From contig MU004231.1 of the NCBI GenBank assembly GCA_010405405.1, positions 422,153 through 486,152 of the forward strand: DNA of 64,000 bases, in the 5' to 3' direction. Positions 1-55,862 of the stretch are shown here, piece after piece; positions within the stretch are counted from its first letter, which is position 1; every line of letters begins with the position of its first letter. The position numbers and the translations under genes were made by a program. The notes beneath the pieces were generated by a model. It did not search any database. It was not told the DNA's origin and saw nothing but the letters and a program-made list of their open reading frames with translations. The stretch comes from Microthyrium microscopicum (lineage: Eukaryota).

Positions 1-199
1 TATAATATCTCTAATAATTATAATATCTTTACTATCTACTATATTTATAATATTTATAATATATTAAATATCTATAATATTTATAATATCTATAATATCT
101 CTAATATCTTTAATATCTTTAATATTTAAAATATCTATTATGTTTCTTATATCTACTATATTTATAATATTCTAGATACTAATATAGGTATAATATAGT

Positions 200-2530
200 A
201 GATAGCTCTAATTACTATATATAGAGCTACTCTAGAAACTAGCCTTACTAGAATAATTACCTAAATACCTAGAATTATTTAGGATTGTCTAGGATTATCT
301 AGAAGGATTAGAAGCTCCTACTTGTTCTTATTAGGATTAAATACTTTACTATATTGTAGTATTAGATCTTAACTTTATAGACTACCTTATTATAAGCGTA
401 TTAAGATTAAGTTCTATAATATTATACTCTTCTTACTATTATCTATAATTTGTGCCTCTTTCTCTTAGCTTAAGTCCTTATCTATAAGATAGAATAATAG
501 GGCATAATTTAGATCTTTCTTATTATTAGTAGCGTCTATAATATCCTAAAGGGTTAAAAGGTCCTTAAGGTTTAGTAGCTTAGTTTCTATTTATCCTAGT
601 TTAGTAAACTAAATATATATCCTCTCTAGCTAGTCCTTATTACTAGGTTCTATTTATATAATTTATTAGTAATTAGAGCTTATATATTTACTTAAATATA
701 TAAGACTTACTTATTAAGTCTATATAATTAGGATTATTCTACTTATTATCTATTTTATGCCTATTATTAGCTAAGAACTTACTATATAATATTACTTCCT
801 TAGGCCATAAGGTATATCCTTTATATCTATATTGCTTATTAAACCTAGCTTTAGAACTACTTTACTTATACCCTAAATATTATAGTAGCTTAAAGGAGTC
901 CTAGTTCTTATTATCTTCTTAAGTAGGTAGATTATAATTATTTTCTTATATAGGCTAGGGTTTTGCTTAAATAGTAATATTAGTAAGATTATTACTAGTT
1001 TTTTAAAGAATATACTTTATAAAACTTATTAATATTATTATAGTTAAAAGTATATACGTCTAGTATTAGCTCTTATTACTCTTTATATTATACTCTAGTT
1101 TTATATAATATAAGATCTTTAATAGTTTTTTAAATAAGTAAGCTCATTTTTTATTTTAAACGAGGTAGTTATAAGTTTTATTATTTAAGCTATTTTTAAT
1201 AACTTATTATAGTCACTAGTTAGTATTATATTATTTATTTAATAACCTAAATTACCTTAATATATAAGTAGGTTATACTAAAAATTATTAACTCTTTAGG
1301 TAATAGTCTCTATATATAGCTTAATAAGTATATAGATATACGTAATAAGTTTACTTAAAAATAGCGATTCTATAATCTCTATAGCCTAGTAGTCTTTAGA
1401 ATATTTTCTACTTTAGCTAAGTATAAGAGTTTTATACTTATAACTAGTATATAAATAGAATAATAAGTTATTAATAAGAAAGGGAATTATCTTATTAGTA
1501 AATAATATATATTCCTAGAGATATTATTAATATATAGTTATAATTTAGTCTTATTTAAAAATATAAACTTACATAAGGTTTACTCTCTCTATTTTTGCTA
1601 TACTTATATAATTTAGTAAAGTTACTATCTTTTCTTAGCTACTTAGTAAACTTCTATATATCTAGTTTCTTAGTTTTAAGTAATCTTAAGAACGTAGAGT
1701 TAAATAGTACTAACTAGTATATATTTTATTTAGTCTAGATATTTAGTAATAATACCTTTAATTATTTAGATATAATAATTCTATACTAACTAACGTAGTG
1801 CTATATCTAGGTAGTTTTTAAAGTTAGCTAAATCCTATATATACTATATCTAAGAAGATATAAGAATAAACTTATATTCTTATAGAATTAGTTATATTTA
1901 GATATAGTTAGTACTTTTAGAATATTAATTACTATAGTTAGGAACTTAGGTAGCACCTCTTCTAGATATACCTTATAGTAATAATTCTAAAGCTTATTAC
2001 TTATTATACTTTATTTACTAGTACTATTTTAATAATCTAGCTAGGGATCTAAGTTATACTTACTATTAAGAGTAGCTAAGGTTAGTTTATTTATAGTTAA
2101 CCTAATAACTCTATTATTATATAGACCTTAGCTTAGTATAAGTTCTTATTTACTTTTCCTTATAAGTAAATATAAACCCTATAATAGACTAGATTTATTA
2201 ATAAGGTTATTAGTATTATAATAATAAGCTTAGAGAGAAATAGTCGTTTAAAGGCTATATATAGCTACTAAGGTATAGAAACTAGTAGACTAGATTATAT
2301 AAATTATAAAGAGAGCCTATCTATATTTATACTATATATAAGGCAATTACTAAGAAGATAATTACCTAAGCTAGGAATAGATATTTAGTCTATATTAGAA
2401 GATAGTAGGTTATATATTTACGCTCGTCTTAGTTTCTATAAATAGAAATAACCTAGTATAGTATCTTTATTACTTATAGCTTAAGAAGGACTATAGTTAG
2501 AAGAATCTACTTTAATATTATTATATTAGC
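200..2530 (-). pseudogene. Possible RIP-decayed coding region, product unknown
   Basis: Minus strand gives protein-like stretches (e.g. GYTLWPKEVILY near 785-820) and GTAAGT-type donors. No family motif recognised. Confidence 0.25.
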
Positions 2531-3739
2531 TTATATATATAATAAGGTAAAGGTAAAATAGAATAAAAGAAATAGATGCTAGTATATTATATAATACTAC
2601 GTTACTTATTAAGCTTTTCTAAGTAATTACGTTACTATAATTAGTAAGGTAAAGAGAAAAGGTTTCTAGAATAGTTTAAGACTTATATATCTATTAGTAT
2701 TTATTAGCTTTCTAGACAAATCTAGATAAATAAATAGTAGAAATACTTAGCTACTACTAAAAGACTTATCTAAGATACTTATAAGTTCTATATTCTAAGT
2801 AGCTTCTAGAGCTTTATTAAAAGTAGCGTTTAATGCTATATAGGAATTACGACTTAGTTAACGTTTAATAAGAATTATTTTTTTAGAAATTATTAAGCTA
2901 GTTTTTAGATAGTTAAGTAAGCTTAACTTAGAGTTTAGGGCCTAGAGTTTATTAGTGCCTCTAGATTCATAAGTACTATTTTACTTAATAGTAGTATCTT
3001 TAACTTATATCTACTTAGTTAGGTTTAAAAACTCTATCTATTTATCTAGCTAGCGGGTAATTATTATATTAGCTAATATTTAGTTTAGTAAGTATATTTA
3101 GAGTATATTATATTAGTATTAAACGTCTACTTTATAAAGTCTATTCTATTTTATTTATTATAGCTTAAAAGATCTTAAGCTATAGGGTCTTATAATAAAG
3201 GTCTACTATTCCTAGTAAAGAAGAATATATAAATTAGAATCTAATAAAAGTAAATTATAGGCTAGGAAAATATATATAATAGTTTACTTAGCCTTACCTC
3301 TCTTTATACCTTAACCTTTATAAGCTCCTATAAGCCTACTCTTTATCTTACTTTTTATAATATTACTTTACCTTACTAAATTTATTATAGTTTTATTAAC
3401 TTAGTATAGGCTTGCCTAAGAAATTATATTATATATAAAACGTATTATTAAAATTTAAATATTAAAGTAAAGTAGTAGTAAGAATCTAATAAGTATAATA
3501 TTATAATAAAGATTACTAAGTATATAGGTATTCTAATAGAAATATATAATTAATAGAACTTTAGATAAGTATAGTAGAGGATAAGAAGTAGATTATATAG
3601 AATAATAAGGAAAGAAGATAATATTTTAAAAGTTATACTATATAACGTATAAAAGATATTAGTACTAGAACTAATTTTAGTAGCATTTTTTATTACTTTT
3701 TAACTCTTAATTAATATAGTATATACTAAGTATACGTAA

Positions 3740-4265
3740 AGGCTATATTCTTAAAACTTATTTAGCTATTATTATTAGTTTTTGTTAAATAGGCTATTCT
3801 AAGGACTATATAAAAAGGGTAAAAGGAAATAAGTTACATTAAGCTATTTCTACGTTACGCTATATTAATATAAGAAGTTAAACTAAGGCAAATCGTAGGA
3901 TCCTATTTAGCTATTACTTTCTATTATTATTAGATCTATTAATTCTAAGGCTACGTAAAAGGGGCTAAAGATTATTAAGTTATATTAAGTAATTTCTATA
4001 CTATACTATATTAAAGTAAAGGCTAAGTAGTAATCTTATATTATAAAATTAGATTTAGCCTACTATTATATTTAATTATTATTTAATACGCTAATTATTA
4101 TATATACTAATTCTTAGGCTATATAAAAGAGGCCTAAGATTATAAGCTTATACTAAGCTATTTCTATATCTCCTTATATTAAAGTAGAGGCTAGGTATTA
4201 ATCTATATTATAAAGTTACGTTTAGCTATATTAATCTATATTATAAAGTTATATTTAGCTATTAT
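3740..4265. repeat. Degenerate tandem repeat (3 units of ~145-170 bp) plus a 2x ~31-bp duplication
   Basis: An ATTCT(A/T)AGG..CTA(T/C)(A/G)TAAAA..GG core recurs near 3796, 3941 and 4110. TATTAATCTATATTATAAAGTTA..TTTAGCTA occurs twice at 4196-4262. Confidence 0.7.
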
Positions 4266-5454
4266 GCTAATATATTATTAAATATATAAGTAAGCTTAAG
4301 TATTATATAAGGTAAGTAGAAGATTTATAGTTTATAGTTAATAATAATAGAATAAGCTAAATCTAAATAGTTAGATAGAAGTTAGTATTAGACTTACGCT
4401 ATTTCTTATAAGAACGTCTTAATTACCACTTTATTAAGCTACTAAAAGTTTATATCCTCTTTTATTACTACTATGCTACTATAATAAGTAAAATACTAGC
4501 TACTACTATTACTTCTTCTACATAAAATAAGTTAATTATTTACTAAATTATTCTAGGAATACATAAATATATTTAGCTACTAACTTTTATTAGCTAGAGT
4601 AAGCTTATCTAGTTTATATAGGAGGACACTTTTAATAAAGAAGCTAGTATTAAACCTCTTAATTACTTTATTTAGATAACTAGTTTATTAATAATTACTA
4701 TTACGTTATTCTATAGTAACTAGTTTATCTCTCTTAATTATAAGTAAGTTATAGAAGCTACCTTTATTACTAATTAAGCTAATATAGGGTCTAAACTTAT
4801 AGAGTCTATAAGTCTTAAAGTACTATATTAGTTACTATCTTTACGTATATTAATAAATAATAGTTAGATACTAAGTATTATTATACTTATAGTCTATACT
4901 TATTTAATAAGTCTAGACTTTTTTATTATTATATAATAGTTTAATTTTAATTCTATATATTAAACCTAGTAAGACATTAGTTAACTATTATAGTACTAAT
5001 TATAGGTACTATTCTAATCTTCTATAGATAATCGCTTAATCTATATATTATATAACTATCTATTCTTCTATAAATATAGTAGTAAATATATTAACTATAT
5101 ATAGACTAGCTATACTCTAATAAGTTATATTAATTCTATAGAAACTTACTATAAGGTATATAAGAGGATACTAGAGAATAATATTCTAATAATTCTATAA
5201 TATATAGATAATCTTCTATACGCGTAAGCTTATTAGCTAGTTAGTACTATTAAATAGAACCTAATATTTATAGTACTATAAAATACTATTTCTTAGTTAA
5301 ATTCTACTAGTATGTAGAGAATAGATAATACTTTCTAATTTTATTAGATAAGACTACTAAACCTAGCTAATATATACTAAAAGTCTAATTAAGATACTTC
5401 CTTAGTATTAGAATTACTAATAGTTATTAACTCTAACCTATTAGATACTACTCT

Positions 5455-5750
5455 AGAGTTAGAGTTATAAGCTCCTTCTATTATAAAGCTTAAGGCTTCT
5501 ATTAAATAATTACTAGACTAGGAGTTATAGTAGGTACTTTATTTTATAACCCTTATTAAATAATCTTTAGAACNNNNNNNNNNCTTTCCTTATAAAGCTT
5601 AAGGCCCCTATTAAATAAGCTCTAGACCTAGAGTTATAGACTCTTTTTATTATAAAGCTTAAGGCTTCTATTAAATAAGCTCTAAGCCTAGAGTTATAGG
5701 CTATTTCTATTATAAAGCTTAAGGACCTTATTAAATAAGCTCTAGAGTAT
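5455..5750 (+). repeat. 60-bp tandem repeat (20-codon unit), probably inside a decayed plus-strand gene; spans a 10-N gap (5574-5583)
   Basis: The unit GAGTTATAG..TATTATAAAGCTTAAGGC..CTATTAAATAAGCTCTA repeats at 60-bp spacing (5631, 5691). De-RIP reading is Glu/Pro/Ala-rich. Confidence 0.85.
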
Positions 5751-7849
5751 TTTATTAAAACTAAGTTATAATTATTTCTTTAACTTAAGATAGAGGCTAG
5801 CTCTTAAGTTTTACTAAAAGCTTCTATTAAGCCTAATATAAAGCTACCTTTTAATATTAAGCTTAAGGTATTTTTTAAAGCTAGAATAGATATTACTATA
5901 TTAGGAATTAAAATATAACCTAACCCTTAAGTATTTAATAAACCTATACCTAATTAATTTATAGTACTATCTATTATCTATACTAAGTAGCTAGTAGACT
6001 CTAAACGCTATTAACTTAATAGATATATATAGACGTATTAAGAAGGTAACTAGTTTACTATATAGAAGTAGTAAGATAAGTAATACGCTTTAAAGGATAA
6101 GAAAGTATTTAAACTAAAGCTAAGGTTTAGACTAGTACGTATAGAGATTTAATATCTAAGGCTAACCTATTCTATTAGGCTATTAAGATCTAATACTAAT
6201 TTATCTTACTTAAAGAATATTTACTTTATTAACTATAAGGTTATAAAGCTAGGTTTTAACCTAAGAATTAGGTATTTTAGTATACTTTAGTATCTTATTT
6301 ATAATAATTAATATTATACTTTATTCTAATTATTAATATATTTCCTAGGTTAAAGAAGAAGAGAGAACTTATAATAGTTTAAGGATTACGTAGTAATAGA
6401 TTATATTTTATTTCTTAATTTATTTTATTACTTTAAATTTAGTAGTTTATTACCTAATTAATATAGTACTATTAATTACTTTATAAAATAAGACCTTACT
6501 ATTAATAAGAGTTCTCTTCATTTAATTAAATTTATAGAAAAGTAAGAGCTCTTTATATTGCCTATACTTAAAGAACTTTCTAAGAAACTTAACTATAGTA
6601 TTATAATTTAAAGTATTAATATTTTTCTTAAAACTATTATAGCTATTATTTATAAACTTTTTATAGTCTAGAGTATAAATATAGTTACTTACTACTTTAT
6701 AAATATATATTTATATATTTATAACTATTAAGAAGAAGTTAGAGTCTAGAAGTATATATAGCTATACCTTAAGTTATATATTACTATAATCTTAGAATTA
6801 TTTTAATTCTCTTAGCCTTAAGCTCTAAGAAGATACTAGTAGAGTTCTATTAGTAATAGACTCTATTTATTATTAATAGATACTTAAAGTTAGAATAAAG
6901 GTTTACTTACGTATATTCTAAGTTTAGGTTTTTATTTATTTCTATTAGTATATATTTCATTAGTAATAGTAAACTAATATAAGAAGTAATCTTTATTATT
7001 TATCTTTATATATAGCTTTATTATGCCCTATACTTAGCTAACGTAATTTTCTAATATATAGATAGCTTTATTTAGCTAGTAGTTATATACTTAGGTGTTA
7101 TATAATATTAGTAATTATCTTTTACTTTTCTTTATACGTATTATAGTTATTAAGACTATAGTGTAAGTCTTAAAGTTGCTTCTTTATAGCTATAGCTAAT
7201 TAGGTATATTTATTTAAGTTTATATTAAGTTATTATATTAGCTCCTTCTTAGTTATATTTAGATGCTCCTTTAAGCTATCTTACTATTTAGCTATATTAT
7301 CTTCTAAAAGTTTAACTACAATATAGAGAGATTATTAAGTAAGAAGAATAGTATAAGATTAGAGTTAGAATAGAGAGAATATACTAAAGATTAATAATAA
7401 GTATATTATAAGGATTAGGAGTTATAAATTTATTATAACGTAGAAAAAGGAATATAAGGGAAATATATTATAGTAGTACTTAAATAATTAGAAACGCGTT
7501 ATTACTTAGGACTACGTGCTACTTATAACTAGATTTACTAGTTTTAAGGGCCTATATATTAAGTCTATAGATATTTTTACGCTACTAGAAGAAGACTTAT
7601 AGATTTATATTTAGGTTAGTAGTTATAGTTAGATTATATTTACGTATAAAATATAAAGTAAGTAGTAGTATTTAGCGTTAATAGTATAATAAAGTAAATA
7701 TTCTTTAAGATTATATAAAATGTTTTTAAAAATTTCTAGACTTATCTAGACTTTCTAGACTTTTTTAGATATACTATTATTTAAAACTTATACACTTTTA
7801 GAGAAGGTTACTTTATAGATACGTTTATAGCTTAGAATTACTATCTTTA

Positions 7850-10800
7850 TATTTCTTATACTATAATGTATAATATTATAGATTTTATCCTTTAGTATAA
7901 TAAGTTAGCTAATAGTTATAACTATTCTAATACTATAGAGTTATAGCCTCTATATTATTATAGTTTTGCTTTATGACTTATTATTTAGTATATTTACTAT
8001 ACTTAGATAGTAATTAAGTCTAGTATATAAATTCTAAAAGGTAATATCTATTCTAGATATAGTTAAGATATTCTATACCTTATTATAATAAAGGTCTAAA
8101 TAGTAGATTATTCTTAGCCCTTTCTAGTAACTAGCTTCCTATATATTAATATCTTATAAGCTTTTATTATTAATGTAAGGTTTCTAGTAATAACTTACTT
8201 ACTAGTCTTATAATTTAAGAAATTATATATTTATAGAATAGATTATGCTTACTAGGATAAAAAGGATTATATAGGTAGTAGTTTAGACGTTCTAGCTTAT
8301 TTATTATTAGCTCTCTATATTTAAAATTATTAATAGCTATATAGTTTTACTTATAGGATTACTATCCTTATCTCTATTAAGTTAAAGAATATTAGTACTA
8401 AAAGATATATTATAGCAATAAAGCCTTTAGTTATAATCTTCTGCTTCTAAGAGTAAATCTATAGTAATAGCTTTAGGTTTAGTAACTCTAATAAATTAAT
8501 AAAGGGGTTAGTAATTATTATTATTATTTTGTTCTCGTTTAAAAGTAAGGTAAGTAAATTAAGAGTATACTATAAAGTTTAAGAACTATCTATAGCTATC
8601 TATACGTAGTTATTATTATATAATAAGTTCGTCTTAAGTAGGTATTATTATAGGCTTTAATATAGCTAGTTTATCTATAATTAGTATTAATTAAATAATA
8701 AGAAATAGCATAAATAAAATAAAAGTCTAATAGCTATTTTGTATAAAGTAGACTTATAATAAGATTGTGTCTTTTCTCTACTATAGTAGTTAAAAGCCTT
8801 AATATATTATCTAAGACGCTACGTTATATTCTAAATTCTATATTATATAATCTATTATAAACTTTATAGCCTTTTATGAATATAATTCTATTAGGTACTT
8901 TATTTATAAGGTACTAGAGATAAGTACCTAAGTATATATAGTCTTTAATATTTTCTAAGTTATTTCTATTAAAGTAAATAAAAGGTATACTTACCTAGAG
9001 GTAAATAAGAATAATATAAAAGGAAAATATAATATACTTAAATATTTTAGATTTAATAACTCTAGTTAATATTATACCTTCTTAGTAGGAATTAAAGACT
9101 CTTCTATTTTTAATAAATAATAATATTTTATAATATAGACTAGGTTACGCTAATTAATCTATAAAGCGTACTAATAGAACTAAATAGTAATAATTACTAT
9201 TTAGTTTTCTATTTAAAGCGCTAACCTTTTCTATTTTAATTTCTAGCCTAAATATAATTAATAGTAATAATTTAGACTTCTATTATCTCTAAATTATTAT
9301 ATTAGCTTAGTTTTATAGCTAATTATAATAGTCTAATTGTCTTCTATCTTTACTTACTACGTCTCTTCTTCTTTTATCTTTTATTTTACTTATTTTTTTT
9401 CTTTTTCTCTCTTCTTCTCTTATTCTTTATTTTTCTTACTTATAATCTTTTCTTTTTCCTTTTTCTTCTTATTTACTACTCTAAGGTATAGGTAGAGAAG
9501 GTAATAGTAATAATATTAATATAATAAATAGTTTTGTAGCTAAGGCTTATCTTATCTTAGTAGACTCTACTCTTCTCTCCTTAAAGATAATATTTTGATC
9601 TTTATATTAACTAATATATGTTTAATATAAAGATATAGTTACTATAGATAGGAAAAGATAAGTAGTAGAAAAGAGGATAAGAAGCTTTAAAGCTTAATAG
9701 TAATTTTAAGTTTAGAATTTTATGTAACTTTTTTAATAGTTAATTAGATTCTTAGATTTTAAGAGTAGTAAAATAATCCCTTTTATTAAATATATCTATA
9801 GCTTAAGATTCTATTTCCTTTAATTACTACTTTTAATTACTATCTCTCTTATAACTTATCTTATTGTTTATTATATATCTTTTATAGATAAGTATATTTA
9901 GAATGTCTAAAATTATATTAAAGAGCTCTCTAATATAGAGACTAGAACCTTTAAAGTAAGAAAGTATAGATAAAGAAAATTATTTAAGCTTTTAAAGCTA
10001 ATATTATTAATTAACTTTAATATAGTGACTATAGGTTTTATATAATAACTTTTAGTTTCTACTTAGCAAAGAGTATTTTATATCTTAAACTCTAGGCCTT
10101 CTTAGCCTCTTTAGCTACTACCTTAACCTCGTTTTTAAGTATAGTCTTTTCTAATAAGTTAGTAATTTCTTTTACCTTAGCCTTCTCTTTTAACTAAGCC
10201 TTTTTTATAGCCTTTTTTATAGCCTTCTTTACGTACTTCTTTATCTTTTTTATGTTCTTTAGTTTCTTTACGTTCTTAGCTTTTAAGTAGAAATATAAGA
10301 TATAATAAGCTTATTTTTAGTAGAGTAGATAATTACGTAGCTATAGCTCTATATTTATAAAATAATTAGTCTATACTTAATTATTTTAGAGGATTATAGT
10401 TCTTACTCTTAATTTTATTTATGTCTTAAGTATTACTTTGCTCTTCCTTAGACTTCTTAAAAATTAGCTTAAGGTGCTTTAAGTAAGTTTAATTAAAGCG
10501 TAGTAATACCTATCTAAGTAAATCCTAATAAGAGATATAGAAAGGATAAGTTACTATAACTAGAATAGGTATATATTAAAGTATATATCTAAATAAAGCT
10601 AATTATAGAGAAGTATAATTATAGTTAACGTATTAGGATTAAACGCTATTTAAATCTAGATACTATATTAGGTTTTTTAAAGTTTATATATTTATATAAG
10701 CCTATTAGGTTTATAGGAGCTTAACTAAGTTTATAGATTATCTTAATATAAGAGATAATATAATATTTATAGTTATTAGTAGTAAATATAATACTAAGAT

Positions 10801-11250
10801 AGATAAAGATATTAGGCGTAAAGATAAAGTTAAATAAGTAAGCTAAGAATTAAAACTAGTAATAGTTATTATAAGTAAGTCTTAAATTTAGGTAATAAAG
10901 TTACTTAGACTAGTAGTTTATTATTAAGGTTATAAAAGGACGTAGCCTTTCTTATTTAATTAAATAGAACTTAATACCTTAAGTTTAAGCCTTCTTAACC
11001 TTTAGTTCTTTATTCTTATCTTTTTCTATTTCTCTCTCCTTCGTTACCTTTTTCTTAGCCTTTAAATATAGATAAAGTAAATAATAGAATTAATCTTAAT
11101 AAAGAGGGTAGTTATGTAGCTAGATTTTCTCTAATTTATTTAAGCGTATTAATAATGCTAATGTTATAATATAGTATAATTTACTAACCTTTTACTAGTA
11201 GAGATAATAGATTTACTTATAGAAAAGCTAAAGTTAAAGGACTAAATTAC
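7850..11250 (-). pseudogene. Decayed gene with Lys/Glu-rich low-complexity segments and a tentative C-terminal Ulp1/C48-like peptidase region
   Basis: Minus strand at 10080-10290 and 9350-9480 reads as K/E/A-rich runs. One frame de-RIPs to (C)NDD.V at ~8620, HLLVPIF at ~8410 and VYDSL at ~8230. The catalytic His and Cys motifs are not clean. Confidence 0.3.
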
Positions 11251-11829
11251 TAATTTTTATTTTTAGGGGAGTTCTAATATTATAAATAAATAGGAGGAAG
11301 ATTAATAAAATACTCTATTAAAACGTTAGCTTAGATTATTAATTACTTAATAGTATAGATAATATAGCTCTATAATTCTCTTTAAGCTCTTTACCTAAGA
11401 TCCTAGTAGGAGCTATAGAAATTAATAGTGCTATATTATTTACTTTATAAATTAATATTACTAGGAAGAGGAAATATAAATAGAATAGCGTTTATAAATA
11501 AATATAGCTAGGTTATATCTTATAGATACACGCTAGAAGATATTTAGCTAAATAGATACTTTATAGGCTATAAGGCGTTATTATCTATCCTTATTATTCT
11601 TCTATCTCTCTCTAAATTCTTTTAGCTACTAGATATATTTATTAGTTTAGTTAAGATATTTAGATTTACTATAAAGGCGTATTTTATATATTAATAGTAA
11701 TAATATTAACTTTAAGTATATTTTCTAATATTCTATATTATTAACAATTTAATAGTAATACTTTAACTCTTACTATAAACTAAACTAATTATATATAAAG
11801 TTATTTATTAAATTTATTATTTCTAGGCT

Positions 11830-17390: not shown

Positions 17391-17404
17391 ATACGTGTAG
17401 GAGA

Positions 17405-23077: not shown

Positions 23078-23108
<31 letters not shown>

Positions 23109-41684: not shown

Positions 41685-42135
41685 TACTTAAATAATTATA
41701 ATATACCTAATAAGTTTAAAATATTTTAAATAGTTTTATAATATTTCTAATAAAGTATATATTATCTTATACGTATCTAATATTTTTATAATAAGTTTTA
41801 AATAACTATAATGTACCTAATAAGTTTAAAATATTTTAAATAGTTTTATAATATTTCTAATAAAGTATATATTATTTTATGCGTATCTAATATTTTTATA
41901 ATAAGTTTTAAATAACTATGATATACTTAATAAGTTTAAAATATTTTAAATAGTTTTATAATATTTCTAATAAAGTATATATTATCTTATACGCATCTAA
42001 TATTTTTATAATAAGTTTAAAATAATTATAATGTACTTAATAAGTTTAAAATATTTTAAATACTTTTAAAATATTTTTAATAAAGTACGTAGTTATCTTA
42101 TACGCATCTAATATTTTTATAATAAGTTAAATATA
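41685..42135. repeat. 110-bp minisatellite, 4 copies
   Basis: AT(A/G)TAC(C/T)TAATAAGTTTAAAATATTTTAAA at 41701, 41811, 41921, 42031. The period is not a multiple of 3. Confidence 0.96.
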
Positions 42136-43770: not shown

Positions 43771-43954
43771 TTAATGCCTAATAATAAACTAATATATTAA
43801 CTATAAATATATACTCCCTAGCGTAGTAAAGATTACTTTAAATAAAGCTCTTATTATAGGTTATTAACTAGTATTTTAGTAGCTAATAATATATATATTT
43901 CCTATTTCTTAGTACTTACTATAAGTTATTACTAACTTATTAATTATTAAGAAA

Positions 43955-44460
43955 TACTACATATTATATACTATAACTTGTACTCATTTTTCTTTTAAAC
44001 TACTACTAAATATCTTTCTACTTTTAAATATTAAGAGATACTATATATTGTATACTATAACTTATACTTATTTTTCCTTTAGACTACTACTAAATATTTT
44101 CCTACTTTTAAATATTAAAAGATACTATATATTGTATACTATAACTTATACTTATTTTTCTTTTAGATTGCTACTAAATATCTTCCTATTCTTAAATATT
44201 AAGAGATATAGTATATTATCTATCCTTATTTACGCTTATTTTTCTTAATACTATTACTAAATATTTCCTTGTTATAGACTATTAAGAGATATAGTATACT
44301 ACTTACTCTTACTTATGCTTATTTTTCTTAGTATTATTACTAAATACTTCCTTATTATAAATTATTAAGAGATATAGTATATTGCCTATCTTTACTTACG
44401 CTTATTTTTTATAGTACTACTACTAAATACTTCCTTATTATAGTTCTTTAAGAAATACAA
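43955..44460. repeat. Tandem array of three ~84-bp units grading into three ~80-bp units
   Basis: CTA(C/T)TACTAAATA..T.CCT..T....TATTAAGAGATA recurs. The 28-aa repeat ORF 44048-44248 reflects the 84-bp period. Confidence 0.88.
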
Positions 44461-44469
44461 TAAAGTACT

Positions 44470-45900
44470 TAATAATAATAGGACTTCTTTTTTCTTTAGC
44501 GCTATATTTAAAGGTATATCTTTATTAAAGTCTAAGTAATATAGTAAGTAGCCTAGTAGCGCGTATTATTTATTTCTTTCTAAATATCCTTATCCTTTAA
44601 AGTTATAATAGTAAATTATATAGTTAATTATATTACTGTTTGCTAGCCTCTTTATTAGCTATATTTCTTTCTATTTTAAAAACTTATATTCTAAATTACT
44701 TATATAGTTAAACACTTATATACTAAATCTATCTCTATCTTTTCTTTATATTAAACTATAGTATAGAACTTCTTAAAAGCTATATCTTCTTATTTAAGTA
44801 TTCTTTAACGTAAGATTATAGCACTATCTTATAAACTAGTAAGCTCTAATTCTCTAAGAATAGATATCAATATTATAATATTTAAAATTTAGAGTTTAAA
44901 GTAAGTATTATCCTTCTAATATATTAAACGTAGTCTTTCTATATACTAACTCTATTATAATCTAGAGAATTAGAAATATTAAGTCTCTATACTAAACTAG
45001 TACTACTTATAATAGCTAAAGACAAGATCTTTATAGTTAAATTTAATTACTATAGTATACCTATCTAAGCCCTATTTAATCTTATACGCTATAAACTAAG
45101 CAATAGCTAATAATATGCTTATCCTTTCCTCCTTAATAATTCTAGATATAGCAAAGTAAAGCATATACACTATAGCGCATCCCTTAACTTACTAATAATA
45201 ATTAAAGATATATTTATTATTATTAGTTTATAAGAAGAAGTTCTATAATCTATTATAGAATTAGTTTTTAGACGCTAGCCCTTTTAGTATAGCTATTCTT
45301 AAAACTATAGCTAATAGTATTACGACGTAGTAAGTGCTTTATATATAGACAAAGTCTTTAAATCATAGCGTCTAGAACATAATACTATTTATAGTGCCTA
45401 CAAGTAGATTAAGGTATAAAGATATCCTTAGGATACCTATAAGTCCTTAGTTCTAATATTAAAATAATATAACTAATAGAGACCACCCCTAGTATTTACG
45501 AGATAAAATAATAGATAGCTTATAGCAATATTCTTACAAGCTTATTAAATCTAATTACTATACTAATACCTAGTTAAATTCCTAACAAGCTCGTAGCCTC
45601 TATTAATAACCTTTTAAGCTTATTAACAAATATTGTTCTAAGACCTAGTAAGAGCTTTTATGAGAGGACTATACTATAATTAAGTTCTAAAGGGTTTCTT
45701 ATAGTACTTAAAGGAGGTATTAAAGTATAAATACTACTTTAATAACTTACTTAGTAAACACGCGTACTCTATGCTAAATTATTATAACGAGTTAATATAC
45801 TATCCTTTAGCACGTCTTTAAACTTATTATAATAGGTTAAAGAGGATATAAAGCTTAATATTAAGGCTAAAAGATATAAGAATAACTTATTTTATAATAT
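44470..45900 (-). pseudogene. Probable decayed coding region of unknown product, running into the 42.9-44.5 kb arrays
   Basis: One minus frame from 45900 reads protein-like for over 200 codons, interrupted only by RIP-type TAA/TAG. No motif recognised. Confidence 0.35.
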
Positions 45901-46809
45901 AGGAGTATTTAGTAAAGTATATTAGTTATTTATTAACTCTTCTACTAATATTCTATATAGACGTATATTAAAGAAGAAGAAGTAGAAGAAGTTAAATATT
46001 AAAAAGATTAAGTAGTTAAATATACACGATTTATTAGCTTCCTTTTATTAGATATAGAGTTACTCTAGGCTTTAATATTACTTCTAATAGTTTAGCCTTT
46101 CAAACCTTAAAGGTTTAAATATATTATCTACTACTTTATTAAGAAACATCTCTACTTAGACGTAGCTATACCTCTACTAAAAGTAATAATAGTATATAGA
46201 CTAATTAAAGTCGTATCTACTTAATATAATCTAGTAGACTCTAGTCCTAACGCCTTAATCTACTATAATAACTAAGGTCTAAGTAAGAGACTTAGAGCTA
46301 CTTAGATATAGTATACTATATTTAGATAAGGTGCTAATAATTAAAGTAGTAGAAATTAATATATCTTACTTATATTAAGAAGTTAGAAAAGTATAGTCTA
46401 GTAAAGTTATTACTATTTAATTATAAATCTTTTATATTCTAATAAGATATTAGAAGATATTTAAAGATATAAACTAATAAGATGCCTTTAAACTTAAGGG
46501 TTACTATATAAGATAACTCTTATAGAACGCTCTAAACGTTACTTCTAATATTAAAGTTCTAACCTCTCTCTATAAGAGAAAGACACTAATTCTATATTAC
46601 CTCTAGCTCTATTATAACTTATCTAACTATAAGCTTTAAGTAGTTAAAAGTCTTAATATAAGTAGTACCTCCTTAGCTAACTATATTAGTTTATAACTAA
46701 TAATATATTAGGCCTTTATTCCTAGTAGTATAGTAATAGCTAATATATTCTTACTAACTAGCAACTAGTACAAACTTACTATATTTACTACTTCTAATAG
46801 CTTTATAAC

Positions 46810-47860
46810 GCGCTTTAACGTAATAGCTATCTATTAAGGCTTTACTAACAACGTAACGTTTAACTACTAGAGCTTTAATAAATAAACCTAGAATACTTAT
46901 AGCTATAGTACTTTAATGCGATAGCTATCTATTAAGGCTTTACTAGTAATGTAACGTTTAACTACTAAAGCCTTAATAAATAGACCTAGAACACTCATAG
47001 CTATAGTACTTTAACGCAATAGCCGTCTATTAAGGCTTTACTAGCAACGCAACGTTTGACTACTAAAGCCTTAATAAATAGACCTAGAATACCTATAGCT
47101 ATAGTACTTCAACGTAATAGCCGTCTATTAAGGCTTTACTAGCAACGCAACGTTTAATTACTAGAGCCTTAATAAATAGACCTAGAATACTTATAGCTAT
47201 AATGCTTTAACGTAATAGCTATCTATTAAGGCTTTACTAGCAACGTAACGTTTAACTACTAGAGTAAGAGTAATAGGCTTAGAATAAACTATAGCTATAG
47301 TGCTTCAACGTAATAGCTATTTATTAAGGCTTTATTAGCAACGTAACGTTTAACTACTAGAGTAAGAGTAATAGGCTTAGAACAAACTATTACTATTATG
47401 CTAGCTACCTAGCTAACTATAGCAACTTTACTAGCTATATAACCTTCTACCACTAAGGTAAGAATAATAAGCTTAGAGCAAACTATTCCTAGCTTAGCTA
47501 AGTATACTAACGTTATAAGCTTACAACCTTCTACTACTAGGGCGAGAATAATAAGCTTAGAGTAAACTATTCTTAGCCTAGCTAAGTATACTAACGTTAT
47601 AAGCTTATAACCTTTTATTACTAGAGCAAGAATAATAGGCTTAGAGTAAACTATTTCTAGCTTAGCTAAGTATACTAACTTTATAAGCTTATAACTTTCT
47701 ACTACTAGAGTAAGAATAATAAGCTTAGGGCAAATTATTTCTAGCTTAGCTAAGTATATTAACTTTATAAGCTTATAACCTTTTACTACTAGAGAAAGAA
47801 TAATAAGCTTAAGGTAAATTATTCCTAGCCTAGCTAAGTATACTAACTTTATAAGCTACG
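46810..47860. repeat. Composite array: six 98-bp hairpin-containing units grading into five 84-bp units
   Basis: (C/T)TATTAAGGC at 46831, 46929, 47027, 47125, 47223, 47321. AGAATAAT at 47461, 47545, 47629, 47713, 47797. Confidence 0.96.
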
Positions 47861-50800
47861 TAACGTTTAACTATTAGAGCTAGTAAGTTAAATATTAGCC
47901 TTAATTATTCTAATAAGCTACGTTAGTTATATAATAATTAATTACTAGAATAAGATTAACGAGCTAGAAGTATAGTAGACCTAAATATTATAATGACTAA
48001 ATAATATATAAGTATTTGTAACTTATTTAGCTTATGCGAATAAGCCTAAAACTAAAACCTAAGGAAGAATATATAGCTATAAGATATATATCTACATCTA
48101 GCACTAGCTTAATAATATATTCTTTTCTAGTATAATAATAAGTTAGGCATAGATTAAGGAATAGTTTTAATACTTTAACTATAAGTTAGAATCTCTCTTA
48201 TTACTTTATTATTCTTTACTAACTCTAAGCCTTAGATAGCTATATATAAAATAATTATAATAGAATCTCTAATATTATATATACTAAATTATTTACTAGC
48301 TTATACCTACTCATACTTATTCTAGTTATTATTAAGTAGTCCTACTTTAGTTAAGTTAATATTCTATAGTAAACTCTATAAGAGAGTAAGTTAAACTCTC
48401 TATATTACGTACTACTAAGGTAAAGAACTATTCCTAGTATTCTATTAGCTAAGATCTTCTAATAAGTTCTAATATTAGATTGTATTATATTAAATAAAAA
48501 TAAAACTAACCTTACTACTAACCTAACTAACTAGTAGTCTACTAATAATAATAATTTATAATTACTAATAACTTATAATTACTAATAGCCTATAATTATA
48601 ATTCTTATTCGTTCTAGACGCTAGGAAATAGCTCCTTAAAGAGAATATTTCCTACTAAGTAAGATAAACCTAAATTACGTATAAAGTCTTTATTATATAA
48701 TCTTACTAAGTACTTACTAAAATCCTAAGTACCTAACGCGTATTTATATTATAACCTATATTTGTTCTATACTTCTTTATAACCTCTATTGTTCTAGCAT
48801 TAGTTCTTTCTCTATCTATATCTTATACAATATATTAAAACTATCTATAAAAAAGATAGTTACTATCTAATATTAGCTCTATTATCTTTTTGCCTAACGT
48901 AGATTATACGTTATATAATAATATAAAAGTAGAGCATAGGATATACTTAAACTAAGACTTTAGCTTTAATTAATATAATCTAACTAAAAGGTAATAATAA
49001 TACATATAGGTAGAAAGTAATAGTAAATACTAGAGTAATAGAAGAAGTAAAATATAAGCAATATTAAGAAGCATATAGAATAAGTATAAAAAAACGTTAA
49101 GATTATATATACTACTTTAAAGAATCTATACTAACTATAGTTCTATAGGAAGTAGATTAACGTTTTATTTAGGTAGGCTACTACTATAATTCTTTCTATA
49201 TAGAGTAAGCTAAAGTACCTAGTAGTTCTATTATTAATACTTATACTAAATACGTTACTTCTAAGCTTATAGATATATCTTCTACCTCTATCTCTTCTTT
49301 AGGAAGTACTTTTAAATAAGCTAAGATAAGGTAGAAAACGCATCTAAGGCTAAAGGTACTTTTATATAAGCTAATCCTCCTAAAGAGACTTATAGAGGTA
49401 AATAATATATCTACGTTAGGAGGATTATATATATATCTTAAGTATAAATCCTTATTACGGCTCTATTCTTCCTTAATCTTATCTAAATTATAACTACTAT
49501 AAGGAGCAAGTCTACTTAAGAGATAGGTAAAGAACATTCTATATAAATAGTAGTATAAGAAAATACGCAAACTACTATAATTATCTCTTCCTTTCTATAG
49601 TAGGCATATACTACCCAATTCTTTAGTAATTATAGTAACTAAAGTAGCTAGCAATGCTATAACCTTATATAAGTTATAAATATCTTATTAGATATAGAGG
49701 AAACTATAGCTATTAAACCCTTCCTAATTCCTTACTTATATTATACTACAAAGTAGTATATAAGCTATAGCCACTAGATCTAGCATTGCTAAAGTTCAAA
49801 TCTATATGAAAATTTACTAGTAAGTTTCCTTCCCTATTTATTAATTAATATAAATAGTTATATTAATAGCCTAGATTTAGACCTACATACGCTCTTTCTT
49901 ACTAATTAATTATAAACATATAAATAGTATACTTATTAAACTCTACTTTAGTAAGATTCTAGAGTCATTACCTTACTACGTAAGTAGTCTTTAAATAAGT
50001 GCTTTAATTAGTACATATGCCTTCTAGGTCTATCTATTATAAGAAACAATAAACCTTAAAACTACCTATTAGTTATTTAGAAATAGTAATATTTAAGAAA
50101 GCTAGCTAGCATCTTACTTTAATAATAACCTTAGCAAGAAGTAAACATCTAATGTCTAATAAGCTTACTAGATCTACTCTACTATCTACCTATATACTAC
50201 TATAGCTCCCTCCCTTAGTAATATATATATATAAACGTTACTAATAACTCTTTAGTAATTAGAGAGAACTACTACTAAGTTAGAAGCAATATATAGGGCA
50301 ATTAATAGTCGTAGTCTAGGTTACGCTAATATATAGTACCTAAACATTAGAAAGGTAAAGATCTTACTAAATAAAGAGAATAAGCAAGCTAGTAAGTATA
50401 TTATTTAGTTATAACTTTCTATATACTTTACTTATATTACTCTTTTTGCCTATCCTCTTTCCTTCTTAAGTAATACTTAGAATACTCTTAAACTTTACTA
50501 TATTTACTTCTCTAATAGTACTTTTCTTACTACTTTTAGCTACTATAGCTTCTTATTAAATATTTATATAGTAAGAAGTTAAAAGAATTAGCATAGAGGC
50601 TAGCAGAATAACCTTAATAATTAATAGAATTAAAGATACCTAATTATGCTCTTTACCTACCCTACGATAGAGTTAAAATATAGCTAATTAACTCTATAGA
50701 AATAGTATTAATAGCTACTATAGCGTGCTAGCTGTGCTATTTATTTACCTTATAATAAAGCTAATATATAGCTAATTAACTTAATAGAACTAGTATTAAT

Positions 50801-52149
50801 AACTAGCGCAACGCGCTAGCTATACTATCTACTTATAAATTAATGACTTTAATACCTAAGTAATTAATCCTACTAAGTTAGTGTTAATAGTTAGCGTAAG
50901 GCGTAATATATAGCGCTATTAATACCTACTACGTAATTACCTAATAGATTATATAGAAGGAGCAATAGGAGCACTTTAAAATAATTTATTAAATAGAGAA
51001 AGTAATTTAACTATGCTTATAATATTACTAAAGTAAATAAAGTAAATCTACCTATTATAAGTCTTAGAGGTCCTAAATATAGTAATAGGTATATACTTCT
51101 TAATAGGATTACTAAACTCTAAAAGCTTACTAGACTATTAAGAGCATAACATATTATTACTATTTATAGATATATACTACTTCTTCTTCTCCTTCCTTTT
51201 CCTTAACGATTACTTCCCTTAGGTTCCTATATAGTGGAGCTATTATTTCCATCCTAATAACGATAGGTAATAGTAGCTAATTAAAAACTCTCTAAGACGT
51301 TAACTACCGCCTAATAGTAGTTATAACTACTACTAGACTAAATAGTTAATAAACCTTCTACTATACCCTACTAACCTAGACTAATATTAATATCCTTATT
51401 ACCTTAAATGCTATAGCTAATACTAGAGTAGAAAGTTAGGAACTATCTCCTTAAAACTAGCCTACGCCTTTATTAATTTCCTTACTACTTTAGACGTATA
51501 TATAGTATATTTTACTATACTATAACTTTATTAGACAATATACTAACTTCTTCCTAAGATAAGGCTATATTAAAGCTAAAGGAGGCTACTACTCTATCTA
51601 TGGTAGGAGAAACCTAAGCACTAACTATTCTTAGACAAAACTTAAAATATTATAGAACTAATACGAGATAGAATATAATTATCTATTGTTCTATATATTA
51701 CTTTATAGAGAATCCTATATTATAATAAGTAAGGCTAAGACGTTAATTCAAACTATTAATATAAATAACATTAGTTTACCTAGTAGCATAAAATTACCCT
51801 TATCTCTATACTTTAAGTTAACCTAGAATGAGCCTAAACTAATAAATAGATATAACTAATGCTTAAATAGGAAATTATAGCGACTCTAAACTCCTCTATA
51901 TTTAACGTATAATAAAGGTTAATATACTATCCTATATCTAGGACGCGCTTAGAGTTATCTATTAAATTAATCCTATTATAAAAATAAGAAAGTATTCGTT
52001 AGTAAGGCTAAATTAAATAGCGTAATCCTATTAGCTAATATTATCTTACATTATCTTATATTATCTAACATTTTCTAATATTAATTAGATTATATTATAA
52101 TAGATAAGATCTTATTATATCCTACTATAATTTTAACTTTATATGAATT

Positions 52150-55100
52150 ATAACTAAAATAGAAACCTTAGATAAATATATATTTATAAATTAACTTCTA
52201 TAGCTTTAAATACGCTAGGATTATCTCTATTAAATAATATATTGCCTATAGTCTCCTTTATAGCAATCTCTTCTTATACATCTAAGTCGTTACTATTAAC
52301 GTCTTAGTTAAGAATATTAATAGGCCTAGTTATAATATTATTTCCTATATAATCTTGCCTAATAGTAGTTTTACGATTAAAAGACTTAGCTTTAATATTA
52401 AGCTTATTAAGTCCTATCCTCTTTATATCTAGTAAGTTATAATATAGGCTATAGTTCTTAATTATAAACTAGGGTTAAGACTTCGTAAGGCTATCTTTAA
52501 TTAGATTCTAGCATAATAAGAATATATTATACTCCGTACTAGTATTAGTATACTTATTACTAGCCTTATATATAAATGTACGCATAAATGCGTTTTATAA
52601 ATAATATATATATATATTATAGAGGTAGACTCTATTAAATATTACCTTAACATTATAAGTTAAGTTACTAAACGACTTTATATCTTTACTATAGTTGCTA
52701 TTTAAATACTCTAATCTAAGATCTATAAGCTTAAAGGAGTTCTTATAGCCTTCTTAGTTAACTAAGCTTAAGGCTAGAATAGACCTTTAAAGTTTAAGAG
52801 TATTTATATTAAATAAGTTCTACCTAAGCTATAGTATTTTATCCCTATAGTTATTCTAACTAGTACTATAAAAGTAAATAGTTAGGGAGTTAACTAAAAG
52901 GCGTAAAAGTCTAATATTACTATACCTAAGGGCATATTATATAGTTAAAAGTAACTTAATCTCTTACAAGTACTAGTATATAATTTAGAACTTAATATTA
53001 TTACTCCTATCTAGGCGCCTATCCTATACTTCTCTTATAAAGGCTATTTAATAAATATCTTTAATAATCTTATTAAACTATTCTAAGGATAATCTATTAA
53101 TATAAGATTTAAGTAGTTCTAGGACAATAAAGAATAAATTATTAATACGCCTAAGATAGTAATCTTTCTAGTCCATACTCTATAAAAACAATACTAGGAC
53201 TCTACTACTAAATCCTTATATTAAGATAAGAATAACCTAATAGGTTTAGGTATTATTACGCTTTCTATAGCTTTATCCCTATATACTAACGTTATATATA
53301 ATAGAATATAGAGCTAGTATATTAACTTTAGAAGAATCCTAATAGGTTTAAATAATATAGAAGAAGTAGTTTATATATATATAGAACTACTTAGGAACTA
53401 GATAAAGGAACTTCCTTAAATCGTATAATTATATTTTATTAAATGCCTTAGCCTTAATAGAGCAATTAATCTTTATGCTTAACTAATTACTATAGGTAAG
53501 AAATAGCCTCTTTCTAAAGATCCTAGTACTTAGATCTAACGCTTATAAACTATTAGTAGAGTTTTTATTACTAACTATATCTAAGATGCTAGATAATGAT
53601 ACTAGTACGAAATCTACTAAAGGAATACTATATCTAAGATTAGAAGACGTACTTATATTACTAATAGACTTAATATCTATACTGCCTTCTTTATTAGACG
53701 CCTCTCTAATTTTACTATTATTAAGCTTGTTTACGTTATTATCTTTAACATTAATCTACTTATTATTATAGTTATTATCTTTAAAGCTACTACTAGATAG
53801 GAATATATTCTTAAATATATCTACGTTAGATTCATTCTAGCTAGAGATATAATAAACTAATAAACTCTTACTATATATTTAGGCAAAAGATAAATAGGCT
53901 ACACTAGATAAAGAGGCGTCTAGTCTAGAATTAGATAGAAAGAATAAAATAGACGCTATAATATCTAATAATAAGGCTATGTCTCCTATATTATTAATTA
54001 AAGGTTTTAGAAAGCTAAAATATTATAAGAAGATTTCATTATATACTTAGTAAGTACTATCTATTATTCCTTTATTCTCTATAATAGTATTAAGCTAATT
54101 AAACTCTATCTTATATAGTACAAGTATATTAATATCTAGTATACTAGGCTAGTATTTATCTTTTTTATGCTTTATAATCTAAGGTTTAATAATATCTAGA
54201 ATACTACATTTTAAAGCGTCTATAATAAGGTACTAGCTAATAGTTTTAATATATTTACCTTCTTAGCTATTAGCCTTTACTAATAGGCCTTCCTATATTA
54301 ATTTCTAGTTAAACTCCTTTATTAAATTATATATATTTTATATTAGTCCTTCTAGAGGTAAAGATAGATAGATTATAATAATAGTAGTAGTAATAGCTAC
54401 TATAGTTATAATATTACCTACTATCTTATTACGCTTATAAGATATAAAGTTTATATTATTATAATATAAGATAGCTTAATAGTTTAGTACGCATTATCTA
54501 ATATTTCTCTATATATTAGGTATTAGCAATATATAAGTTCTTTTAAGGTTATAAACTTAAGATTTTTAAAGATCTTATAAGATATATAAAGATCTTATAA
54601 TATATTTAAAGATCTTACAACATATTTAAAAATCTTATAAGATCTTATATTTAATACTAAGTATAATACTATTATATACTAAGGCTTATCTTAAAACCTT
54701 CTTTATATACCTTAGTATAGTCTTATAACTAGTATATACTCTAAGAGCTACTAGTAAGTCTATAACCTATCTCTTTATACCTAACCTAAGTAAATAGATA
54801 CTAAGCGTTACTACTAAATAGTTATTTATCTCTCTACTTCGCTAATAAAGAATAATTACTATAATTATATATATAAGCTTCTATTTTAGCTTATTACTCT
54901 ATTTATATGTCTTATAGTTCTAATTACGTATAAGTTTATAAAGAAAGGCTATCTAAATAGGTATAGTATTCCTTATCTTTTTAATAGCTTTCTTAAAGTT
55001 AATATTTATACTATCTACTCTACTACTAAAGCGGTTAAAACCTATAAGTTTTATAAAGACGTAAAACTCTATCTATAGTCTAGAATTAGTATAATACTTT

Positions 55101-55580
55101 AGCAAAATCCTATTACTTAATAACTCTTCTATAACGTTCTTTAAAAACGTATAGTAAGTAGTAACATTAGCGTATAGGTTGCTATTAAGAATAATATTAT
55201 TATAACTATCTTTTTAGCTAGCCTACGATAGAAGAAACGATTTTATAGTTATCTTCTAATCTTAGATATATTTTAGTATTATAGTAAGCTTTTATTTAGC
55301 TAAATTTAGGCTCCGCCATAGTGTTATTATTACCGCTAGTTATAAACAACCTAATAGTTTAGCATTATTAGGCTCATGTTAAATTCTACTTAAGGTATTC
55401 CTAGGATTTATTATAGTTATTATATTACTAGAGATATATAAATATAGACTCTTTATTATTATAAAGATAAATCTATCTTTACTACTATTATTACTAAAGA
55501 GAGGCACGCCTAGCCTATATAGAAATTAGGTTATCTCTATAAGACCTTCCTCTACGACGCGTACTTTTAATAGAAAGTAT
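52150..55580 (-). pseudogene. RIP-inactivated DUF6589-family protein (putative DDE transposase, Academ-like)
   Basis: Ordered de-RIP motifs on the minus strand: L(G)IYLL(GS)GIKR(R)VIDLL(A)AL(G)V(C)TSYKT at ~54725-54805, a probable intron with 10/20-bp repeats at ~54490-54690, Y(D)NINF at ~54455, EN(E)G(T)ID(G)TY at ~54065, (HGDQ)LS at ~53485, (P)VPK(W)F(H)I.(M)N at ~53385, (GD)I(G)LL at ~52915, ID L(G)LE(H)LN at ~52700-52726. N-terminal RR(G)GR(PR) near 55545. Confidence 0.85.
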
Positions 55581-55728
55581 AATTTATAAAATTAATAAAG
55601 AAAAAGACAATAATTATAATAATAGTAGAATTATTAAAAATATATATATATTAGTAGTAAGGACATGGTTATAATAATATAGGCATTTACTAACAACCAC
55701 GAAGCGCGTCGCACTAAAAAGGTCCGAG

Positions 55729-55862
55729 TTAGCCTCAGACCCTCCTGCGGAGGGAGCCCGCGGACGGGCAGGGTTAGGGTCTAAGAACTAAGATAAAACC
55801 AATGCAGGTTGGCAGGGCTAAGTGGAAACTCAGCCTTGTCGACAGCCTCATGCGTGGCACTA
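55729..55862. other. GC-rich multi-hairpin and candidate element terminus
   Basis: CCCTCC-tgc-GGAGGG (55740-55754) and GCCCG-cgga-CGGGC (55756-55769), enclosed by the imperfect inverted pair TTAGCCTCAGAC (55729) / GTCTAAGAACTAA (55779-55791). It lies ~150 bp upstream of the DUF6589 start, at the RIP boundary. Confidence 0.5.

Follow-up and report, generated by a model that had tools for sequence, protein, structure and literature searches.

We analysed a window of 64,000 nucleotides from the fungus Microthyrium microscopicum (GenBank assembly GCA_010405405.1, contig MU004231.1, positions 422,153 to 486,152; coordinates below are those of the window), in which an AT-rich block mutated by repeat-induced point mutation (RIP) meets an unmutated flank, with a gene of the Pfam family DUF6589 at the junction. 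The original prediction had interpreted this block as the fossil of a giant, cargo-carrying DNA transposon led by the DUF6589 gene. Across positions 1–56,000, guanine-plus-cytosine (GC) content was 0.20–0.28 in 28 of 28 two-kb intervals. Customary thresholds for RIP are a TpA/ApT ratio above about 0.89 and a (CpA+TpG)/(ApC+GpT) ratio below about 1.03; the same 28 intervals gave 1.53–2.19 and 0.03–0.35, respectively, placing all of them within the RIP-mutated range. The four flank intervals, in turn, showed GC contents of 0.44–0.49, TpA/ApT ratios of 0.73–0.82 and (CpA+TpG)/(ApC+GpT) ratios of 1.17–1.31. The RIP-mutated block covers positions 1–55,689 and extends past the left edge of the window, and GC content rises from 0.25 to 0.53 between 55,600 and 55,900. 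Both the RIP-mutated block and its sharp right boundary were therefore as predicted; the claim of more than 55 kb of continuous RIP sequence held in that all 28 intervals are mutated, but two runs of N (5,574–5,583 and 37,172–37,251) interrupt the block.

To the left of this boundary, a Pfam scan of all six frames over positions 1–57,002, with stops read as X and thresholds of E ≤ 0.01 or E ≤ 1 depending on the segment, detected DUF6589 (PF20231) on the minus strand at approximately 52.7–53.5 kb with 34.8 bits against a gathering cutoff of 27, and no other family above its cutoff. A HMMER search with the X-masked translation of this relic retrieved 148 relatives, of which the best (E 6e-206, 56% identity; runner-up 29%) was an intact protein of 1,062 amino acids from M. 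microscopicum itself (KAF2669316.1, hereafter P0002), named at source as a hypothetical, DUF6589-domain protein, encoded on a 2.5-Mb contig and scoring 209.7 bits against the Pfam family. In tblastn, P0002 mapped over its full length to 55,580–52,184 on the minus strand, in coding blocks at 55,580–55,497, 55,429–54,680 and 54,508–52,184 that correspond to amino acids 4–28, 35–284 and 285–1,062 and leave two intron-sized gaps; no second copy of a P0002-like gene was found in the window. This position puts the start codon some 110 bp inward of the GC jump, and the DUF6589 gene is indeed, as had been proposed, the first gene inside the boundary and points inward. Furthermore, 1,030 of 1,049 aligned codons were derivable from the codon of the corresponding P0002 residue by C>T or G>A changes alone, compared with a fraction of 0.18 in a shuffled control. 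The relic contains 62 stop codons, and its translations read D301N, D629N and Q630stop relative to P0002. Because the map is full-length and the codons derive from P0002 by RIP-type changes, we regard the relic, on sequence grounds, as a complete RIP-killed DNA copy of a transposase gene that is still intact in M. microscopicum.

We then compared contigs assembled from the source sample with the window over 44,001–64,000. A single-copy contig was identical to the window, with 0 differences, over 55,760–64,000. In both of two source-sample runs, three further contigs departed from the window sequence, and from one another, immediately past 55,796; from there on, agreement with the window fell to 17/30 positions in a purine/pyrimidine code, which is the random level, and their mutual agreement was only 0.64. 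Since three contigs diverge there, the element ends at 55,796 and has at least three further ends in the genome, and we take the window boundary to be the true terminus of a DUF6589 element, which in the orientation of the gene begins at 55,796 with TTATCTTAGTTCTTAGACCC (55,777–55,796, minus strand). The terminal 107 bp (55,690–55,796) were spared by RIP in the window copy, GC content being 0.53 at 55,700–55,899; other copies carry transitions in this segment, and the loose contig end before 55,717 matched 22 of 30 positions in purine/pyrimidine code. In run X2, the differences between copies comprised 528 A>G, 656 T>C, 346 C>T and 296 G>A changes, with at most 22 of each transversion type, for totals of 1,826 transitions versus 89 transversions. 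From these contigs, the DUF6589 element is judged to be multicopy in the source sample.

The less-mutated copies were represented by contig pieces at 44,477–46,730 and 48,204–49,357. Next to the loose ends at 44,477, 46,730, 48,204, 51,021 and 55,014, the adjacent 30 nucleotides matched the window at 29–30 of 30 positions in purine/pyrimidine code, so these copies are collinear with the window over at least 44,447–55,796 (minus strand), where word depth is about twice the single-copy value. Collinearity of other copies with the block was thus upheld for 44,447–55,796, within the 44,001–64,000 region compared. The loose ends at 44,477, 46,730 and 48,204 were also considered as the ends of small independent elements, and this was rejected given their collinearity. 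In run X1, word depth was 223.6 over 44,477–46,730 and 230.2 over 48,204–49,357, against 116.8 for single-copy sequence; this roughly twofold depth hints at two near-identical copies without RIP mutations, and hence at recent activity of the element. Run X5, from another study and labelled as a different organism (B), contained short low-depth pieces of the flank and of 55,682–55,835 with zero differences, and seems to hold the same or a very close organism; these short pieces yielded no empty site or strain comparison. A telomere-like AGGGTTAGGGT occurs just inside the terminus at 55,770–55,780, and a 33-bp tandem unit at 22,838–22,945 contains TAGGGTTAG; the resemblance of both to telomeric repeats is probably coincidental.

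The anatomy of related elements was delineated in metagenome contigs, where a scan yielded 19 DUF6589 loci, 15 of them distinct. Three loci (L004, L005 and L016) have unrelated left flanks and share common sequence from one point on, starting with TTATCTCATAAATCAGACCC, and this motif also lies upstream of the DUF6589 gene in L006, L007 and L013. By manual count, TTATCTTAGTTCTTAGACCC equals the terminus of L004, L005 and L016 at 15 of 20 positions, and the TTATCT...AGAC(C/T)C frame of the window terminus is common to L006, L007 and L013; the terminal motif is kept across relatives with only about 40% amino-acid identity. Two loci hold complete elements with inverted copies of the motif at both ends, L007 at 981–10,540 (9,560 bp) and L016 at 8,678–17,287 (8,610 bp), with terminal inverted repeats (TIRs) of 16–18 bp starting TTATCT...AGAC; the other metagenome loci yielded no additional complete element. 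L016 is flanked by an 8-bp target-site duplication (TSD), CATAAGGT. One related element measures at least 13.5 kb, and L006 shows that 4 kb or more of additional DNA can be accommodated in the family.

Downstream of the DUF6589 gene, a convergent open reading frame (ORF) of about 920–990 amino acids with DEAD and Helicase_C domains was present in 10 of the 15 distinct loci, the complete elements of L007 and L016 among them; the five distinct loci in which it was missing have at most 2.9 kb of downstream DNA each. Relatives of this helicase are often named at source as RecQ-type superfamily 2 (SF2) DNA helicases. In addition, in 8 of the 15 (L001, L004/5, L006, L007, L008/9, L012/13, L016 and L019; for example L007:4961–5308, minus strand), a small cysteine-rich ORF without a Pfam match separates the DUF6589 gene from the helicase. 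Its core, GHIGRIMETELG...C-x2-C-x6-C...C-x2-C...C, resembles a binuclear zinc cluster. In the relatives, the helicase or small gene is encountered 0.5–2.5 kb past the DUF6589 stop codon. Atlas clusters of DUF6589 are mostly from Basidiomycota and Mucoromycota. Some loci showed features of their own: L016 (17.7 kb, GC 0.39) is AT-shifted with broken ORFs, is 80% identical to the intact-looking L004/L005 copy and is probably itself RIP-mutated; a DDE_Tnp_4 (PIF/Harbinger-type) ORF neighbours the DUF6589 gene in L018 (7760–8569, minus strand); and a 742-amino-acid ORF with a weak APH-like match neighbours it in L002 (2517–4742, minus strand).

To assign a function to the encoded protein, we modelled P0002 with AlphaFold from 32 aligned relatives, obtaining a predicted local distance difference test score above 90 over residues ~270–460 and 610–1010. 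In a wide structure search with VIA-align, ranks 1–31 were all DDE transposases or retroviral-type integrases; they included Hermes (Z 10.0, 295 aligned residues), the P element (Z 7.6, 331 aligned) and RAG1 (Z 7.1, 336 aligned), as well as Tn5, ISCth4 and IstA. The model shows an RNase-H core that bears a helical insertion domain, with a helix-turn-helix towards the N terminus, residues 238–290 resembling helix-turn-helix domains in the same search. D301 lies on the strand 296–311, D629 just after the strand 624–628 and E888 on the helix 883–900. Among the 32 sequences, G628, D884, E888 and N891 are invariant and D629 is at least 90% conserved, and the consensus contains YDN. Alignment and secondary-structure position together point to D301, D629 and E888 as a candidate catalytic triad, two members of which are the residues changed in the relic as D301N and D629N. 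DUF6589 was the sole Pfam domain in 14 of 15 relatives scanned, the 15th (P0004) being a repeat artefact without a family. A profile of DUF6589 alignment A1 matched nothing among PDB sequences, and the family has no sequence similarity to any solved transposase. On the strength of the predicted fold, DUF6589 appears to be an RNase-H-fold DDE transposase. The proposal that a DDE-type enzyme mobilised a large unit is accordingly borne out in its first half, by the fold, by the inverted termini of the relatives and by one 8-bp TSD, but a unit spanning the whole block found no support.

The extent of the element towards the left was approached through the severity of RIP. A single strong change point emerged at 41.2–41.8 kb, with a log-likelihood ratio of 37: (CpA+TpG)/(ApC+GpT) was 324/3535 = 0.092 to the left of ~41.5 kb and 252/1246 = 0.202 to its right, and severity was uniform from 44 to 55.7 kb. 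The block thereby divides into a heavier tier (1–41,500), in which no Pfam family exceeded its cutoff, and a lighter tier (41,500–55,796, minus strand), which we read as the dead copy of a DUF6589 element. A palindromic microsatellite, (CTAGATATAT)n, lies near the change point at ~41,590–41,650. No terminus-like sequence was found at 40–43.5 kb. Elsewhere, the hits resembling a left terminus at 3,342, 6,399, 10,073 and 3,470 were at chance level, as shuffled and reversed controls gave equal counts, and a cluster of weak matches at 8–12 kb was not significant after correction for the number of bins. Since the left terminus was not found in the window, the length of the element here is unproven.

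The partner genes of the family were likewise sought within the window. No helicase relic was found by tblastn with 94 helicases or by two helicase profiles, and one small-gene profile revealed no relic of the small cysteine-rich gene. In a control, the relic reached 261.8 bits with a DUF6589 profile from which P0002 had been left out, which indicates that such profiles can detect a RIP-mutated relic. The 94 helicases included an M. microscopicum homologue, P0201 (KAF2669323.1), which shares the 2.5-Mb contig of P0002 and has an accession seven numbers away from it. With neither the helicase nor the small gene in the collinear stretch, the DUF6589 lineage in the window is unusual and departs from the family plan.

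Collectively, we consider it moderately probable that the block is a two-tier RIP graveyard: the right tier represents a dead DUF6589 cut-and-paste transposon, and to its left (1 to ~41.5 kb) lies repeat DNA that is older, bears heavier mutation and has no assigned origin. Of the dead copy, 11.35 kb is traced by collinearity, and its full length is probably about 14 kb. Under this model, the element would have moved by DDE-catalysed excision and integration and multiplied to at least four termini in the genome, after which its copies would have been inactivated by RIP, leaving the window copy with D301N, D629N and 62 stops.

Several observations weigh against this reading. The left limit at ~41.5 kb was drawn from RIP severity only, which could vary within one element, and no inverted partner of the terminus emerged in the window from RIP-tolerant, pattern-based or purine/pyrimidine searches; the original prediction had suggested looking for an inverted copy of 55,690–55,862 to the left of the window. 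The 7.7 kb to the left of the transposase gene (44,447–52,184) are collinear among copies yet lack the helicase and small gene, and look non-coding. The proximity of P0002 and P0201 may reflect a larger unit that includes the intervening genes, and sequence to the left of 44 kb may be part of one unit with the right tier, collinearity having been examined from 44,001 rightwards. Moreover, L007 has no TSD, so that one of the two complete elements shows this hallmark; Foldseek returned nothing against the PDB at E ≤ 0.001 with the P0002 model; and the candidate triad was placed by alignment and secondary structure rather than by superposition on known catalytic residues.

The remaining contents of the block bear on the alternatives. 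The original prediction had reported relics of SNF2 and superfamily 1 (SF1) helicases and of Plavaka, and had recognised no reverse transcriptase (RT), integrase or long terminal repeat (LTR). In the six-frame scan of 1–57,002, Pfam gave no match to RT, integrase, SNF2_N, Helicase_C, PIF1-type, AAA_30-type, Plavaka, KDZ or DUF3435 families. Self-comparison by BLASTN and in purine/pyrimidine code recovered only tandem arrays, local repeats and one 98-nt inverted pair, and no LTR-like, TIR-like or long direct repeat pair; the lack of RT, integrase and LTRs was thus corroborated. Coding-like stretches, marked by purine/pyrimidine (RNY) periodicity and low stop density, were delineated at 12.0–17.7, 20.1–25.5, 27.3–30.6 and 34.2–36.0 kb; each partly overlaps tandem arrays with a period that is a multiple of three, which contributes part of the signal. 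These four stretches had no match in Pfam or among PDB sequences, where phmmer searches with their frames found no helicase and no Plavaka relic, at a sensitivity reduced on RIP-mutated sequence. Because neither the Pfam nor the phmmer scans gave a match, the helicase and Plavaka relics are unconfirmed. On RIP-mutated sequence, DUF6589 kept only about 17% of its Pfam score (34.8/209.7 bits), so a more degraded Plavaka or KDZ relic could be missed; word-based protein searches are insensitive to RIP-mutated translations, and missed the DUF6589 relic itself despite its ancestor being in the database. A match to ArgoL1 at ~36.7 kb, which with 16.3 bits fell short of the cutoff of 22, and two phmmer matches to cbb3 oxidase among PDB sequences (E 0.09 and 0.23) were treated as chance. 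No tRNA or Rfam match was found.

The predicted repeat arrays were recovered as 19 rows of Tandem Repeats Finder output. Within the lighter tier, they include arrays at 41,688–42,128 (110 bp, 4 copies), 42,875–43,765 (81 bp, 11 copies), 43,935–44,457 (84 bp, 6 copies), 46,813–47,362 (98 bp, 5.6 copies) and 47,410–47,857 (84 bp, 5.3 copies). The region 37.8–51.3 kb, which shows no coding-like periodicity, has many such arrays, and a local repeat cluster at 37,700–41,200 consists of segments of ~230–390 bp, spaced ~720 bp apart and 83–89% identical. Beyond the terminus, the flank (55,797–64,000) is single-copy and free of RIP, covered by one contig with 0 differences over 55,760–64,000. It contains only two ORFs of at least 120 amino acids in 8 kb, and nine of ten ORFs scanned had no Pfam family. 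A Clr5-domain gene at 59,758–60,556 on the plus strand (PF14420, 44.2 bits, domain at ~60,148–60,261) is split by a short intron-like gap; the gene placed next to the boundary by the original prediction is therefore real, but lies about 4.3 kb from it.

A first alternative is that only ~52.2–55.8 kb belongs to the DUF6589 element, truncated just past the stop codon, and that 41.5–52 kb consists of unrelated repeats that accompany it by chance in several copies, for example after segmental duplication of a stretch dense in repeats. This would account for the lack of helicase and small-gene relics at the position they occupy in relatives, 0.5–2.5 kb past the stop, and it suits the region of 37.8–51.3 kb, where tandem arrays are plentiful and no coding-like periodicity is seen; the approximately twofold depth of the less-mutated contigs would fit a duplicated segment as well. 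However, RIP severity is uniform across 44–55.7 kb and shifts only near 41.5 kb, and the collinearity of the copies is unbroken at the five points sampled between 44,447 and 55,014 in purine/pyrimidine code. We therefore regard truncation as unlikely.

A second alternative retains the giant element, with the whole RIP block of more than 55.8 kb as one DUF6589-mobilised unit whose cargo lies to the left of the transposase and whose helicase and left terminus fall beyond the window. In its favour, the right edge does carry a terminus and a transposase that points inward, and the window holds neither a left terminus nor a helicase relic, though relatives have both. In addition, other copies are collinear for at least 11.35 kb, to the edge of the region compared; P0002 and the helicase P0201 share one 2.5-Mb contig; and the at least 4 kb of extra DNA in L006 speaks for tolerance of insertions. 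Against it stand the step in RIP severity at ~41.5 kb, the two complete relatives of only 8.6 and 9.6 kb, the SNF2, SF1 and Plavaka relics that could not be verified, and the two assembly gaps in the block; moreover, if the intact locus, where the helicase is seven gene models away, served as template, a relic of P0201 would be expected inside the window, and none is there. In ascomycetes, an extended AT-rich tract with RIP mutations is usually a mosaic built from many elements, which also counts against a single unit. No positive result was obtained for the whole 55.8 kb as one unit. With the left end missing and the usual partner genes absent from the collinear stretch, the giant reading nevertheless keeps a small probability. 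In its boldest form, a Starship-like giant with a DDE enzyme would have a living example in KAF2669316.1, six gene models and KAF2669323.1, for which the chances seem equally slim.

A last alternative, that DUF6589 is an ordinary host gene which was duplicated and then RIP-mutated, the shared terminus being the end of the duplicated segment, draws on the Pfam label of unknown function and the single passing mention of the family in the literature searched, but is very improbable in view of the DDE-transposase fold, the inverted 16–18-bp termini in two loci, the terminal motif in six distant loci and the window, the unrelated flanks of three copies, the additional junctions (at least three) detected in the source sample and the many fragmentary family members in metagenomes.

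Taking the right tier as a dead DUF6589 transposon, we compared the family with known systems. Kojima in 2020 is said to have described the AcademH lineage of Academ DNA transposons. The DUF6589 family resembles this lineage in the DEAD/Helicase_C helicase beside the transposase in 10 of 15 distinct loci and in its largely basidiomycete and mucoromycete distribution. AcademH elements are described as low-copy fungal DDE-type TIR transposons that encode a transposase and a separate DEAD/Helicase_C helicase (PMC10799480, PMC10045372) and are reported from Ascomycota, Basidiomycota and Mucoromycota (PMC10799480). The differences are that the window copy lacks the helicase and that the DUF6589 TSD is 8 bp (CATAAGGT, n = 1, L016), compared with the 9–10 bp cited for AcademH (PMC10045372). 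A 2017 article noted that the RNase-H-like domain of Academ had no Pfam family match (PMC5751038), which fits a family that was later filed as a DUF. Compared through descriptions of AcademH rather than its sequences, the DUF6589 family may be the AcademH lineage.

Likeness to hAT transposons lies in the structure, Hermes (PDB 8edg) being the best match (Z 10.0, 295 residues), in an RNase-H core whose putative catalytic glutamate is preceded by a large helical insertion, and in the TIRs of 16–18 bp with a TSD of 8 bp in one element. hAT elements make 8-bp TSDs. In contrast, Pfam found neither the hAT dimerisation domain (PF05699) nor a BED finger in 14 of 14 DUF6589 proteins, and the helicase partner is a feature of DUF6589 loci and not of hAT; we also take the TTATCT... 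terminus to be unlike the usual hAT termini. With Starships, described as large cargo carriers, the element shares a mobilising gene at one end that points inward and a host among the Pezizomycotina. Unlike theirs, its enzyme is of the DDE/RNase-H fold rather than a tyrosine recombinase, and complete DUF6589 relatives measure ~9 kb, whereas Starships span tens to hundreds of kb. DUF6589 occupies the place of the captain, and Pfam found no DUF3435 match in the six frames of 1–57,002. Kyakuja-Dileera-Zisupton (KDZ)/Plavaka elements are likewise fungal DDE transposons with accessory genes. P0002 and its relatives, however, have no KDZ or Plavaka Pfam match. Zisupton makes 8-bp TSDs (PMC12730594), and the partner gene described for KDZ/Plavaka is a TET/JBP dioxygenase, whereas that of DUF6589 is a helicase.

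These results have several implications. A transposase at the border of a RIP-mutated isochore is not in itself evidence for a giant element; if the giant reading were nevertheless true, it would amount to a Starship-like giant mobilised by a DDE enzyme in place of a tyrosine recombinase. Alignment in purine/pyrimidine code offers a simple route from RIP-mutated copies back to intact ones. Above all, we propose a function and an anatomy for a Pfam domain of unknown function, in that DUF6589 proteins would be the DDE transposases of fungal TIR transposons. Should the family not be AcademH, as the single TSD of 8 bp against 9–10 bp may suggest, it would represent a further group of helicase-bearing DDE transposons. 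In the literature searched, DUF6589 receives only a single passing mention, as a possible virulence or epigenetic factor, and a transposon-derived reading of the family would correct such annotations.

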